Part shown: positions 1 to 1,813 of the stretch, piece by piece
Layout: each line of letters opens with the position of its first letter
Numbering within the stretch: position 1 is the stretch's first letter
DNA from: a virus
Taxonomy: Duplodnaviria; Heunggongvirae; Uroviricota; Caudoviricetes
Reading direction: 5' to 3' (one strand)
Virus record (IMG/VR): IMGVR_UViG_3300001149_000089
Length of the DNA: 4,825 nt
Translations under genes and position numbers: made by a program
The notes under the pieces: model-generated
Seen by the model: the letters and a program-made list of their open reading frames with translations, nothing else
What the model was told of the DNA's origin: nothing
Databases searched by the model: none

Positions 1-678
1 TCCATCCAGAACGATAGATCTGACGTTGTAAGGAAAACGTTCTGCATATAAGGCTGCAATTTGTGTTCCATACGAATACGCCACGGCTGTCAGTTGTTTA
101 TCACCCAAGGCTTGCCTAATACGATCAATATCATATACAGCCTCATTAGAGCCGATATGGCGAATGACTTCGGCTCCGGTATTATGGATACAGGCATTAA
201 TTTTATTTAGTACTCGTTGCTTTTCGGTTATGTTTTCCTGAATCTCTGTATCTGATTGCTGGCAGTTTATTGTCGGAGTGGACTGTCCGACGCCTCGAGG
301 ATCAAATCCAATAATATCCCATGACTCACGCAGATTTGTGACTGGCCAGTCAAAGTTAATATAAGGATTTATGCCTGGTAACCCGGGCCCACCACTTATT
401 ATCAGGATGCTTCCTTTATGCTTGCTTTTTGCCGGCAATTTTGTCAACGCTAGTTTGACTTGTGATTTTTTTTCATAAGAAGCATCTCCGCCTATATTTG
501 TATATTTTAATGGAACAGACAAATAACCACATAGTAAGTCAGGAGACGGTTTTTCCTCAGCAAACCAGTGGTTGAATTGACTGGTCATACAGGATTGCCA
601 CTCGATCTGCTGGGCAGATACGGTTACGGGTAGAAGTAAGGTTAAAACAATCTTGAAATGAGCAATTATCTTTCGCAT
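1..678 (-). CDS. Secreted alpha/beta-hydrolase, S33 (prolyl/tripeptidyl aminopeptidase-like) family; 5' end complete, 3' end beyond window start
   Basis: Minus-strand ATG at 678 preceded by AGAGG about 5 nt upstream; frame stays open to position 1 (226 codons). Translation begins MRKIIAHFKIVLTLLLPVTVSAQQ (signal-peptide-like, VSA|QQ cleavage motif), then ISGGPGLPG (GGPG motif), GFDPRGVGQS, and the nucleophile elbow AVAYSYGTQ (Sm-x-S-x-Sm). Not in the ORF track because no stop lies inside the window. Confidence 0.7.
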   Translation of the reverse strand, partial: MRKIIAHFKIVLTLLLPVTVSAQQIEWQSCMTSQFNHWFAEEKPSPDLLCGYLSVPLKYTNIGGDASYEKKSQVKLALTKLPAKSKHKGSILIISGGPGLPGINPYINFDWPVTNLRESWDIIGFDPRGVGQSTPTINCQQSDTEIQENITEKQRVLNKINACIHNTGAEVIRHIGSNEAVYDIDRIRQALGDKQLTAVAYSYGTQIAALYAERFPYNVRSIVLDG

Positions 679-810
679 TGTGCCTCTGAATATCAGTATA
701 AAGATAAAATTTGAATATATTGACCCCTGTGTTGCGGTAGGGGGCTACACGTTACGGATATTGGTCAAATGAGTACAAAATTAGAGAATGTTGTTTACTT
801 TGAATAGCAG

Positions 811-846
811 ATAAACTCCCCGGGGCTATGCATTACCACCGGGGAG
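811..846 (-). terminator. Candidate rho-independent terminator downstream of ompT
   Basis: Inverted repeat CTCCCCGG (816-823) / CCGGGGAG (839-846) with a 15-nt loop, 17 bp after the ompT stop; on the minus strand the stem is followed by a moderately U-rich UUUAUCUGCUAUU. Lies between ompT and the hydrolase gene. Confidence 0.45.
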
Positions 847-862
847 ATTTTAGTTAACGGTG

Positions 863-1813
863 TTAAAAGGTGTACTTAAGACCAGCAGTAGTGATGAAAT
901 TATAGTTTTCTATGCCTGCACCATTTTTGCTGTATTCAGAAGTATTATCATTATGGTCATAAAGTGAAGTATCACCTTTCTTATTCGTAACCCGATTCCA
1001 TGCGCCTTCAACATAAACTTTTGCGTTAGGTGTTACGTAATAACCTGCATTGACTGCAATAGAATAGTAATTTTGGTCTTTGACCTTACTGCGATAAGTG
1101 ATTCTTTTTACACGGGCATAGTGTTCATCGTTATCAGATGCTTCCACCCAGCCACTGTATTTAAATGTGCCACCAAACTCAAAATCTTCATAACGGTAAC
1201 TACCCGTCAGGCCAATATAGGGCATTTTAAAACGTTGTTTATAGCCTATTACTCTTTCTCCATTCGGGATGGAGCCGATATCATCTCTGAATCCCTCGTC
1301 AGAGTATATATAGGAACCACCTCTGGCTGTAAAGCTATAACGGCTTTCCTGATATCCGGCCATAAGCCCCAAGCGGTAATTGGATTCGTTGAGGAGCCAG
1401 CCTTTGATATTCAGATCAAATTCGTTGGCAAAATTAAGGCGGGTATCGGGATGTCTGCTTTCATCTGTCCAGATGCCAGGTTTATCTGGGTCCTGCCAGT
1501 CACGGTCAATCATATTACCCCCTTTCTGACCGAGAGTAGTCCAGCCAGCAGCCCCGACCGATACCTGGGGCATCAAATCCCAATTAATTGCACCTTTAAT
1601 AATTGCAGCGTTATTGAATTTCCAGTCGAGTTGACTGACTTTTTGGCCTCCTTCTTCGGCTAGATAAACACGCTCTTTTGTTTTTCCGCTCAGAGTTCCA
1701 AGACTAATGTCCGCATTTATGTTGTCAGGTGTAAACGATAAAGTCTCGGTAGAGGCAAAAGAGCAGATCGCAATAGGGGTTGTCAGAACTATTCCCAGAA
1801 GTTTCGCCCGCAT
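863..1813 (-). CDS. ompT: Omptin family outer-membrane aspartyl protease OmpT (317 codons with stop at 863-865)
   Basis: ORF-track protein matches E. coli OmpT as I recall it over essentially its full length (MRAKLLGIVLTTPIA...ITTAGLKYTF), including the D-x-D (IDRDW) and D-E-H (SDNDEHY) catalytic motifs. The track ORF starts at an in-frame ATG at 1825 (METFM...); I place the start at the ATG at 1813 (MRAKLL), which has GGAG about 7 nt upstream and matches the canonical OmpT N-terminus. Confidence 0.93.
   Translation of the reverse strand: MRAKLLGIVLTTPIAICSFASTETLSFTPDNINADISLGTLSGKTKERVYLAEEGGQKVSQLDWKFNNAAIIKGAINWDLMPQVSVGAAGWTTLGQKGGNMIDRDWQDPDKPGIWTDESRHPDTRLNFANEFDLNIKGWLLNESNYRLGLMAGYQESRYSFTARGGSYIYSDEGFRDDIGSIPNGERVIGYKQRFKMPYIGLTGSYRYEDFEFGGTFKYSGWVEASDNDEHYARVKRITYRSKVKDQNYYSIAVNAGYYVTPNAKVYVEGAWNRVTNKKGDTSLYDHNDNTSEYSKNGAGIENYNFITTAGLKYTF

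Follow-up and report, generated by a model that had tools for sequence, protein, structure and literature searches.

Layout of the locus

Why does an ompT-type gene lie directly upstream of, and on the same strand as, a gene for a putatively secreted alpha/beta hydrolase? The adjacency could reflect a functional partnership; the earlier note on this DNA had suggested that an outer membrane endoprotease and a secreted aminopeptidase-like enzyme might degrade peptides in two steps. Alternatively, the two genes might encode enzymes that act separately and merely travel together, or their juxtaposition might be an accident of a single genome.

By blastn, the window (the whole 4,825-nt stretch of DNA analyzed here) is 100% identical to positions 1516696 to 1521520 of the Escherichia coli APEC O1 chromosome. 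The elements named in the earlier note were all found where it had placed them, on the minus strand. In the RefSeq annotation of APEC O1, tail genes are followed by cdtABC type IV, the hydrolase gene, the omptin gene, and then a junction; strain 2009C-3133 has the same gene order. The omptin (OmpT-variant) coding sequence occupies positions 863 to 1813 on the minus strand and encodes 316 amino acids, including a 20-residue signal peptide (ORF and RefSeq annotation). Downstream of it are an intergenic spacer of 184 bp (679 to 862, minus strand) and the first 226 codons of the hydrolase gene (1 to 678, minus strand). The hydrolase, a protein of 494 amino acids (translation and RefSeq WP_001226090.1), extends beyond the left end of the window, and its complete gene spans 1515889 to 1517373 of NC_008563.1 (RefSeq).

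The omptin

The omptin gene starts with the ATG at 1813, which has GGAG 8 nt upstream; the start of a longer ORF, at 1825, differs from the annotated one. The protein matched Pfam PF01278 (Omptin) at 1.6e-128, with profile positions 1 to 283 of 283 covered, and NCBIfam NF008222 at 675 bits (cutoff, 537). It is a full-length member of the omptin family (PF01278; MEROPS A26). Pfam, NCBIfam, and RefSeq thus agree with the earlier reading of 863 to 1813 as an omptin gene; RefSeq gives the product no more specific name than "omptin family outer membrane protease."

When the protein was aligned pairwise to K-12 OmpT, the catalytic residues D83, D85, D210, and H212 (mature OmpT numbering) proved to be kept. 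The two proteins are equal in length but for one codon, have the same signal peptide, and are 91% identical at the amino acid level, whereas the alleles of SE11, Sakai, and the phages are 99% identical to that of K-12. Their 29 differences are concentrated in surface loops by the active site (Q84R, D214A/P215R/G216V, and residues 76 to 94). The genes also share a hairpin after the stop codon and about 250 bp of upstream sequence, and each is the final gene of a lambda-like prophage, next to attR. They differ in chromosomal site and in downstream neighbor: K-12 ompT (b0565) lies at the argU/DLP12 site next to appY, whereas the window gene lies at the Rac/uspF site next to the hydrolase gene. 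The earlier note had correctly placed K-12 ompT at the DLP12 end between appY and envY. The window omptin is 99% identical to the allele carried by IncFIB iro plasmids. Assignment to a ColV-plasmid type or ArlC-type omptin was considered and dropped in view of the 91% identity to K-12 OmpT and the different context, the ArlC context being taken as given in PMC6854850.

The downstream hydrolase

The N terminus of the hydrolase carries a predicted Sec-type signal peptide, read by eye as MRKIIAHFKIVLTLLLPVTVSA followed by QQ (residues 1 to 22, with cleavage after VSA; positions 613 to 678, minus strand); this segment has low pLDDT in the structural model described below. In the mature protein, alignments revealed six cysteines that are invariant and four that are nearly so, a pattern that fits an extracytoplasmic protein. 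The full hydrolase matched Pfam Abhydrolase_1 at 9e-33 and 114.4 bits (gathering cutoff, 25.8) and Abhydrolase_4/TAP-like at 3.7e-15 and 56.3 bits (gathering cutoff, 21). These matches place the predicted protein, of about 52 kDa, among the TAP-like (S33-type) alpha/beta hydrolases, and the S33-type family proposed in the earlier note therefore stands. The combination of Abhydrolase_1 with a TAP-like C-terminal domain is common to the Streptomyces tripeptidyl aminopeptidase (Tap) family, PF08386 (MEROPS S33).

The narrower proposal of a prolyl aminopeptidase was not borne out. The TIGR01249 model scored 36.2 bits against a cutoff of 259.75 and covered only residues 170 to 262, and the structural TM score to prolyl aminopeptidases was only 0.33. 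Instead, the nearest characterized relative is an endoprotease/esterase, Hip1 of Mycobacterium tuberculosis (Rv2224c, CaeA; PDB 5UGQ and 7SFM), which a phmmer search of the PDB matched at an E value of 3.6e-51 over hydrolase residues 21 to 475. An AF2 model of P0001, a 95%-identical relative standing in for the APEC O1 hydrolase, had a pLDDT of 88, and Foldseek aligned it to the Hip1 structures with an E value of 1.7e-34 and TM scores of 0.76/0.80. These full-length similarities in sequence and modeled fold mark the hydrolase as Hip1-like, and Hip1 is its closest solved or characterized relative.

The two proteins share a TAP-like C-terminal region and the motifs of the catalytic triad, with SYGT, DPxTP, and xxHT opposite one another in the HMMER alignment. 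S202, D428, and H455 are invariant in alignments of 22 and 29 sequences that include homologues down to 30% identity. The predicted Ser202/Asp428/His455 triad is thus conserved within the nucleophile-elbow, DPxTP, and GxxHT motifs. The codon of the predicted nucleophile Ser202 (motif A-Y-S-Y-G-T in the alignments) is at 73 to 75 on the minus strand, and those of Asp428 and His455 are outside the window. Hip1 is an exported, cysteine-rich envelope enzyme, as the hydrolase is predicted to be. However, identity between the two is only about 27%, and the hydrolase differs in its predicted Gram-negative Sec export, the absence of an evident anchor, and its carriage by phages or plasmids.

The PDB name of the Hip1 entry is "Carboxylesterase A," and Hip1 was first described as a carboxylesterase. 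The next structural neighbors found by Foldseek, TnmK1/K2, are not peptidases, and for both of these reasons the label "peptidase" is uncertain for the hydrolase. Its export, activity, and substrates are those that homology would suggest, and no experimental work on this hydrolase was found in the literature searched.

Distribution and carriers of the pair

The full pair is present in 1223 of 5426 complete E. coli genomes, and both genes were present in all of the full-length matches sampled (16/16). Its place in lambda-like prophages is the right end, and the prophages concerned occupy at least three chromosomal sites. These include the right end of a prophage in SE11 (ompT-envY-ybcH-nfrA), the right end of Sp8 in O157 Sakai (ECs_1662/ECs_1663), and the prophage at the uspF/ompN (Rac) site in APEC O1, where the pair directly follows cdtABC type IV. 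Among phages, the pair occurs in 11 records, among them those of 2G7b (where it is located between tfa and int), ev243, and PhiR29_1; phages Kati and PhiR68_2 matched the ompT part only. Both proteins match PHROG families, and IncFIB iro plasmids carry the pair at 98% nucleotide identity.

The pairs of Sakai Sp8, SE11, 2G7b, ev243, and PhiR29_1 have the same order, strand, and prophage-end or b-region place as that in the window. The Sakai Sp8, SE11, and phage pairs have a gap of 186 bp versus 184 bp here, with hydrolases 95 to 96% and omptins 91% identical to those of the window. They differ from it in their other integration site, the lack of an upstream cdt operon, and a K-12-like omptin (99%). 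By its location, the pair fits a lambdoid moron, lying in the nonessential phage region from the tail-fiber genes to att/int and missing in some relatives. The setting that the earlier note had singled out does differ from that of K-12, but it is not unusual, given the 1223 genomes, Sakai Sp8, SE11, and the phages. This is a common and already annotated two-gene cargo, neither unusual nor new.

The boundaries of this cargo could be placed within the window. Positions 1 to 2644 are shared with cdt prophages at the uspF/ompN (Rac-site) locus (blastn), whereas homology upstream of ompT to K-12, SE11, phage 2G7b, and Sakai Sp8 stops at 2066 to 2089. By these end points, the ompT upstream or promoter region (1814 to 2089, minus strand) travels with the cassette, and 2090 to 2644, common only to the cdt prophages at that locus, is a site-specific prophage end or junction. 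To the right, an ORF at 2703 to 3011 (minus strand) encodes the C-terminal remnant of a tyrosine integrase (Pfam Phage_integrase, 1.7e-9); RefSeq annotates 2703 to 2933 as a truncated tyrosine recombinase pseudogene. B2 chromosomes without the cassette at this position have homology from 2449 onward (2449 to 4825), and in strain N31 the same remnant adjoins sitABCD with no ompT/hydrolase cassette at this position. Because B2 strains lacking the cassette here carry the remnant, these comparisons assign it to the resident chromosomal locus, outside the cassette. The integrase remnant reported in the earlier note is therefore real but is not part of the cassette. RefSeq describes the region to the right of ompT as a patchwork of pseudogenes, comprising the integrase remnant, a DUF1627 fragment, and a sitD-like permease.

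Co-inheritance and loss

Each hydrolase homologue of at least 76% identity follows closely behind an omptin of its own; this holds for the OmpT and OmpP lineages and for two others, and in Escherichia the hydrolase gene adjoined an omptin gene in every case examined. Gene order is the same in the OmpP-type and the two other diverged pairs, so that adjacency and orientation are conserved across four omptin lineages with omptin identities of 69 to 99%. The OmpP-hydrolase pairs of E. coli plasmids have the same architecture, an omptin gene followed by a same-strand hydrolase gene with a hairpin between, although their setting is one of plasmids and insertion sequences rather than prophages. Their omptins are 69 to 73% and their hydrolases 76 to 78% identical to those of the window, and the gap is 92 bp. 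Pairwise identities of omptins and hydrolases covary with a Spearman coefficient of 0.93, calculated over pairs that are not independent, and hydrolase dN/dS between lineages is 0.11 to 0.18 at a dS of 0.5 to 1.1. By these measures the two genes codiverge under purifying selection, and the conserved pair therefore appears to be an old, co-inherited cassette. In the synteny comparison the hydrolase gene was accessory rather than core and its pairing with ompT was conserved; the refuting outcome named in the earlier note, a widespread core gene with no conserved adjacency to ompT, thus did not occur.

A test for mutual dependence of the genes failed in both directions. K-12 has ompT without the hydrolase gene, with appY in its place, and homology to the window begins only at 817. 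B2 strains also have ompT without the hydrolase gene; their homology reaches down to about 708, which places the end of the deletion, by alignment, about 30 bp short of the position of the APEC O1 hydrolase start codon. A plasmid omptin gene of 83% nucleotide identity has IS66 elements on both sides and no hydrolase gene. Conversely, no omptin was found within 5 kb of hydrolase homologues of at most 54% identity (Salmonella, Budvicia, Serratia, two metagenome contigs, and 80 genome loci). The 80 loci are among the matches listed from GTDB species genomes scanned with the hydrolase alignment; among these matches they are mostly actinobacterial, with a few cyanobacterial loci, one in Serratia, and one in Pseudomonas, and no extra enterobacterial synteny was seen among them. 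The pair is the commoner and probably the ancestral arrangement, and that of K-12 is probably derived.

Spacer and expression

The earlier note had taken a hairpin between the two genes as an argument for separate transcription. This GC-rich hairpin (816 to 846, minus strand), about 17 nt past the ompT stop codon, has the stem CUCCCCGG / CCGGGGAG with a 15-nt loop region and is the dominant element in an RNA fold of 679 to 870. It is followed by UUUAUCUGC and therefore lacks a proper U-tract, and an intrinsic-terminator scan did not call it. The hairpin is kept in K-12, SE11, Sakai Sp8, phage 2G7b, and the ompP context. The spacer measures 184 to 188 bp in pairs of the OmpT and L096 types but only 92 bp in those of the OmpP type. 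As an argument for separate transcription, then, a hairpin without a U-tract that is kept even at 92-bp spacing is weak. A promoter scan found a -35/-10-like site upstream of ompT at 1879 to 1852 and no sigma-70 consensus in either the 184-bp spacer or the OmpP-type spacer. Such scans of promoter and terminator signals neither prove nor exclude cotranscription.

In a Sakai microarray study, ECs1662 and ECs1663 were both expressed in culture, and both fell by about 2.5 to 2.7 log2 on entry into stationary phase, in the same cluster (PMC2241611). A very large growth-related cluster of genes behaves in the same way.

Why the two genes stay together

The explanation we prefer, as probable though far from assured, is that the omptin and the hydrolase are envelope enzymes that work independently of each other and have remained neighbors chiefly through common descent on one small mobile phage block. 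Positions 1 to 2089 would constitute a two-gene cargo ("moron") block in the b region of lambda-like phages, from the tail-fiber genes to attP/int, and a b-region position before attP/int would make these the last genes before attR in the lysogen. The pair would have been inherited as a unit since before the split between OmpT and OmpP and would have moved among phages, chromosomal sites, and IncF plasmids, the hydrolase gene being lost in K-12 (appY instead) and by deletion in B2 strains. Both enzymes would benefit the lysogen, each acting alone: OmpT, an outer membrane aspartyl endoprotease, would cut cationic peptides at the cell surface, and the hydrolase would be a periplasmic or released peptidase or esterase. 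Some read-through from the ompT promoter is likely. Counting against this reading, order, strand, and proximity have been strictly maintained through a dS of about 1, which exceeds what hitchhiking alone would usually produce and favors a degree of coupling, whether functional or regulatory, rather than complete independence. The failure to find a sigma-70 consensus in the spacer also weighs against it.

In the two-step module suggested by the earlier note, OmpT would cut host or antimicrobial peptides at dibasic sites on the surface, and the fragments would enter the periplasm, where the hydrolase would trim or destroy them; the two genes would be expressed together, at least in part, from one transcript. 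Codivergence under purifying selection, with a same-strand hydrolase gene directly following the omptin gene in each of four diverged lineages, is what such a module would predict, as are the 92-bp OmpP-type spacer, the failure to find a promoter consensus in either spacer, the hairpin without a U-tract, the parallel change of ECs1662 and ECs1663 in O157 Sakai (PMC2241611), and the predicted envelope location of both hydrolases. We nevertheless consider it rather unlikely. OmpT activity is well documented in K-12 and B2 strains, which do not have the hydrolase (PMC6854850), the IS66-flanked plasmid omptin also lacks it, and homologues of at most 54% identity have no omptin within 5 kb. Moreover, Hip1 is no aminopeptidase but an endoprotease/esterase for which a protein substrate has been defined (PMC4022732), the prolyl aminopeptidase model failed, and the microarray change is common to a very large growth-related cluster. 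We consider it unlikely, too, that the OmpT/OmpP branch has an ancestral, coevolving Hip1-like partner, the two forming a functional phage- or plasmid-borne envelope protease pair. Such a pair might destroy host defense peptides sequentially or set a Hip1-style immune-modulating protease alongside OmpT, and it would have escaped attention through loss of the second gene from K-12 and from the UPEC strains in common use.

Hip1, the best match in both sequence and structure, modulates macrophage responses via GroEL2 proteolysis (PMC4022732), which raises the possibility that the hydrolase is a released, host-directed virulence factor that weakens innate immunity by cleaving one particular protein of the bacterium or the host and that travels with ompT and cdt. 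The gene directly adjoins cdtABC in APEC O1 and 2009C-3133. In addition, a 2026 in silico paper flagged the hydrolase gene as an STEC marker, present in 81.6% of STEC versus 15.8% of non-STEC genomes, a figure that refers to WP_249926694.1 and is linked to the gene studied here by description (PMC12945212); the paper's other hydrolase accession, WP_085453571.1, belongs to the P0002 cluster. However, with only about 27% identity to Hip1, no evident secretion route beyond Sec, and a gene often present in commensal-type B1 strains as well (SE11, for instance), this role seems improbable, and the STEC association may just reflect phylogroup and prophage load. That the juxtaposition arose by chance in APEC O1, through decay of a prophage or island near the integrase remnant, is suggested by the pseudogene patchwork to the right of ompT. 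We rejected this as almost certainly wrong, since the remnant belongs to the resident locus and the same pair recurs with the same spacing in 1223 complete genomes, 11 phage genomes, plasmids, and diverged OmpP-type copies.

Significance and earlier reports

What matters, to a modest extent, is that lambda-like phages carry a Hip1-like hydrolase of predicted secretion, present in about one-fifth of the complete E. coli genomes, and that its gene has stayed tied to omptin genes through long divergence. Because most work on OmpT has been done in hydrolase-free K-12 or B2 strains, any effect of the hydrolase on resistance to peptides, on proteolysis in the envelope, or on interaction with the host would have been missed.

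The pair itself is ordinary, widely annotated, and already known beside cdt-IV. In E. coli 28C, rorf1, a "putative protease," and rorf2, an "OmpT-like protease," flank cdt-IV (Tóth 2009, Infect Immun 77:492, as relayed in PMC4606577). These genes were matched to the APEC O1 pair by gene order and by their descriptions only. According to the same account, rorf1 resembles a protease of an EDL933 prophage and lies downstream of cdt-IV, the gene for the OmpT-like protease of the outer membrane comes after it, and lambdoid tail genes frame the whole arrangement (PMC4606577).

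The omptin gene in the window

The window is 100% identical to positions 1516696-1521520 (4825 bases) of the E. coli APEC O1 chromosome (NC_008563.1). Its minus strand carries an omptin coding sequence (863-1813; ORF and RefSeq), a spacer of 184 bp (679-862) with a GC-rich hairpin (816-846), the first 226 codons of an alpha/beta hydrolase gene that continues beyond the window edge (678-1), and a C-terminal tyrosine integrase remnant (ORF 2703-3011; Pfam, 1.7e-9; a RefSeq pseudogene). Finding all of these features at those positions bore out the coordinates and description of the earlier note, which had also rightly stated that K-12 has its ompT at the DLP12 end, flanked by appY and envY. 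A longer omptin ORF, to 1825, opens within the ribosome-binding region; the start in RefSeq and K-12 is MRAKLL.

The omptin matches the Pfam Omptin model end to end (1.6e-128) and scores 675 bits on NCBIfam NF008222 (cutoff, 537). With K-12 OmpT it shares 91% identity and the residues D83, D85, D210, and H212. In a pairwise alignment, the 29 differences are grouped in surface loops adjoining the catalytic residues: Q84R lies between D83 and D85, D214A/P215R/G216V directly follow H212, and a cluster spans residues 76 to 94. It is possible that this allele has an altered substrate specificity. An allele 99% identical to it is found on IncFIB iro plasmids, and the two might possibly reflect recent phage-plasmid exchange. 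In strain 2009C-3133 (locus L004, 12863-13816, compared with window 863-1813), the hydrolase (98%) and the flanks are APEC-like and the omptin is K-12-like (99%); the middle portion of ompT turns to the K-12 type in the alignment, which points to putative recombination breakpoints within the gene.

The hydrolase is Hip1-like

The complete hydrolase, taken from the APEC O1 record, has 494 residues. It contains Abhydrolase_1 and TAP-like Abhydrolase_4 domains, each over its Pfam cutoff, and its best solved relative is Hip1 (Rv2224c/CaeA) of M. tuberculosis (E, 3.6e-51; residues 21 to 475). The AlphaFold2 model of an E. coli relative 95% identical to the APEC O1 protein (pLDDT 88, pTM 0.88) gave TM scores of 0.76 to 0.80 with Hip1 crystal structures, with TnmK1/K2 next, and of only ~0.33 with prolyl aminopeptidases. 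On the prolyl aminopeptidase equivalog model the hydrolase reached only 36 bits (cutoff, 260), and this identity was rejected. Thus, the earlier note was correct in its observation and essentially right about the family, in that a secreted S33/TAP-type hydrolase is supported; a prolyl aminopeptidase is unsupported, and the most precise label is "Hip1-like."

The residues Ser202 (A-Y-S-Y-G-T; codon at window 73-75), Asp428, and His455 do not vary across alignments down to 30% identity, nor do six cysteines; four more cysteines are nearly invariant. These cysteines and an N-terminal MRK-hydrophobic-VSA|QQ segment indicate an envelope enzyme with disulfide bonds and, as predicted from the signal-like segment, export by Sec.

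A literature search found no experimental work on the hydrolase. A 2026 in silico study (PMC12945212) reported an uncharacterized alpha/beta hydrolase as a marker of STEC (81.6% of STEC versus 15.8% of non-STEC genomes), with a STRING link to OmpT. One of its two accessions, WP_085453571.1, falls in a hydrolase cluster (P0002) with 83% identity to the protein of APEC O1; the other protein, of 472 amino acids and 81% identical to WP_085453571.1, would fit the main cluster by its length and identity. Desloges et al. (2019) compared ompT contexts in UPEC and did not mention the hydrolase (PMC6854850).

Omptin and hydrolase have a long shared history

All examined hydrolase homologs of at least 76% identity lie directly downstream of an omptin gene on the same strand, at gaps of 184 to 188 bp or 92 bp. 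These pairs include K-12-like OmpT, the APEC O1/IncFIB variant, a diverged type (L096) at 82% identity, and two OmpP types. Across pairs, identities range from 69 to 99% for the omptin and from 75 to 99% for the hydrolase, and the two co-vary (Spearman 0.93, a descriptive value, as the pairs are nonindependent). Both genes are under purifying selection, with dN/dS of 0.11 to 0.18 for the hydrolase, at between-lineage dS of 0.5 to 1.1, and of 0.05 to 0.18 for the omptin.

Homologs of at most 54% identity had no omptin in their flanks; these were a plasmid-like contig of Salmonella, Budvicia, a Serratia plasmid, two contigs from metagenomes, and, among the matches listed, 80 loci of other, mostly actinobacterial, genera. 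A plasmid omptin of 83% nucleotide identity with IS66 elements on both sides lacks the hydrolase. Together, the linkage, the codivergence, and the unpaired copies of either gene argue that the pairing is old, is particular to the OmpT/OmpP branch as carried on mobile elements of Escherichia, and is obligatory for neither partner.

The pair is carried by phages and is probably phage cargo

In APEC O1, lambda-like tail genes (J, lom, and tail fibers) are followed by cdtABC type IV, the hydrolase, the omptin, and a junction; the far side of the junction holds the integrase remnant, a fragment of DUF1627, a sitD-like pseudogene, and uspF-ompN, the site of the Rac prophage in K-12. A cdt-hydrolase-ompT block of the same order directly adjoins uspF in 2009C-3133. 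PMC4606577, relaying Tóth et al. (2009), describes cdt-IV of strain 28C as framed by lambdoid genes, with rorf1 (a "putative protease," said to resemble ECs1662) and rorf2 (an "OmpT-like" protease) at its flank. In O157:H7 Sakai, ECs_1662 ("hydrolase") and ECs_1663 (ompT) are the last two genes of the lambda-like prophage Sp8, near minCDE, and in SE11 the pair closes a lambda-like prophage whose site is ompT-envY-ybcH-nfrA, the classical locus. Eleven sequenced phage genomes, e.g., 2G7b, ev243, PhiR29_1, and Turner, carry the pair, which in 2G7b lies between tail-fiber assembly genes and int, corresponding to the lambda b region by attP, and is placed much the same in PhiR29_1; each gene has its own PHROG family. 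On IncFIB plasmids, the block lies by iroBCDEN and is 98% identical in nucleotide sequence to the APEC O1 copy.

We consider it probable that lambda-like phages carry the pair as a two-gene lysogenic-conversion block, which has been inherited whole and moved repeatedly among phages, chromosomal sites, and plasmids. Its products would be two hydrolases of the envelope, probably acting independently of one another: OmpT on the cell surface and a Hip1-like peptidase/esterase that is either periplasmic or released. Chance juxtaposition is excluded. The main rival is the proposal of the earlier note that the two enzymes form a two-step peptide-degradation module. Deep and strict synteny would suit such a module; however, each partner is dispensable for the other and the affinities of the enzyme are Hip1-like rather than aminopeptidase-like, and we regard this proposal as unlikely. 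A host-directed virulence role of the hydrolase in the style of Hip1, independent of OmpT, appears quite improbable. The interest of the system lies in a widespread, uncharacterized phage-borne Hip1-like enzyme with long-standing linkage to an omptin.

Frequency and loss of the hydrolase

Of 5426 complete E. coli genomes, 1223 gave a full-length match to a query of hydrolase, spacer, and ompT 3' end; when 16 of these full-length hits were sampled at even spacing, every one carried the annotation "alpha/beta hydrolase | ompT." About 1900 further genomes matched the ompT-proximal part only. In B2 strains (e.g., ATCC 25922), homology ends at ~708, which leaves 30 bp to the start codon of the hydrolase, in what looks like a deletion scar; in K-12, it begins only at 817, in the hairpin, with appY past that point. 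These end points look like two independent losses of the hydrolase. Given the frequency of full pairs and these truncations, the hydrolase-bearing arrangement is likely ancestral and K-12 derived. The "non-K-12" context of the earlier note does differ from K-12, but it is the common arrangement and is already known from the literature and RefSeq annotation.

Transcription across the spacer

The hairpin lies ~17 nt past the ompT stop codon, dominates the predicted spacer fold, and is kept in every context compared, K-12 and OmpP included. It is followed by UUUAUCUGC, with no U-run, and a terminator scan made no call there. A promoter scan found no sigma-70 consensus in the 184-bp spacer or in the 92-bp OmpP-type spacer, which leaves little space between hairpin and ribosome-binding site. 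Both genes fall ~2.5 to 2.7 log2 at stationary-phase entry in O157 Sakai, in the same, large and growth-related, cluster (PMC2241611). Partial read-through from ompT into the hydrolase is plausible, and the hairpin, which the earlier note took as an argument for separate transcription, supports that reading weakly.

Sequences flanking the block

The homologous segment that all copies have in common starts in the hydrolase, takes in ompT, and reaches window 2066-2089; beyond that, the sequence varies with the integration site. The integrase remnant noted earlier is indeed near ompT but is not a member of the block, as it occurs beside sitABCD in B2 strains without the cassette at this site. In strain N31 (L103), the same remnant has an intact sitABCD operon on its opposite side, and in the window a frameshifted, sitD-like "metal ABC transporter permease" pseudogene (4288-4825, minus strand) adjoins uspF; sit genes at this hotspot suggest a possible old duplication or rearrangement. 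On an IncFIB plasmid with a 98%-identical pair (L002), an 8.6-kb "glucoamylase family protein" gene (17270-25852) lies ~3.5 kb past the omptin.

Two copies of an 18-bp perfect direct repeat, GGCAAAAATGGGGCAAAA, occur at window 2450-2467 and 2480-2497, exactly at the start (2449) of homology to B2 chromosomes without the cassette at this site and within the stretch, reaching 2644, that is also present in the 2009C-3133 cdt prophage; the repeat could be att associated or serve as an arm site for integrase. A further repeat (2144-2176), inverted and perfect, has 12-bp arms, GTGAGTCTGGCG / CGCCAGACTCAC, around a loop of 9 nt and lies ~330 bp upstream of ompT, in the upstream part limited to uspF-site prophages. 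Finally, the AT-rich stretch from the integrase remnant to the sit-like pseudogene contains a 59-amino-acid ORF (3720-3899, plus strand), absent from the RefSeq annotation, with a very hydrophobic product (MRKILMYLCISIWIVISCVPIILT...).
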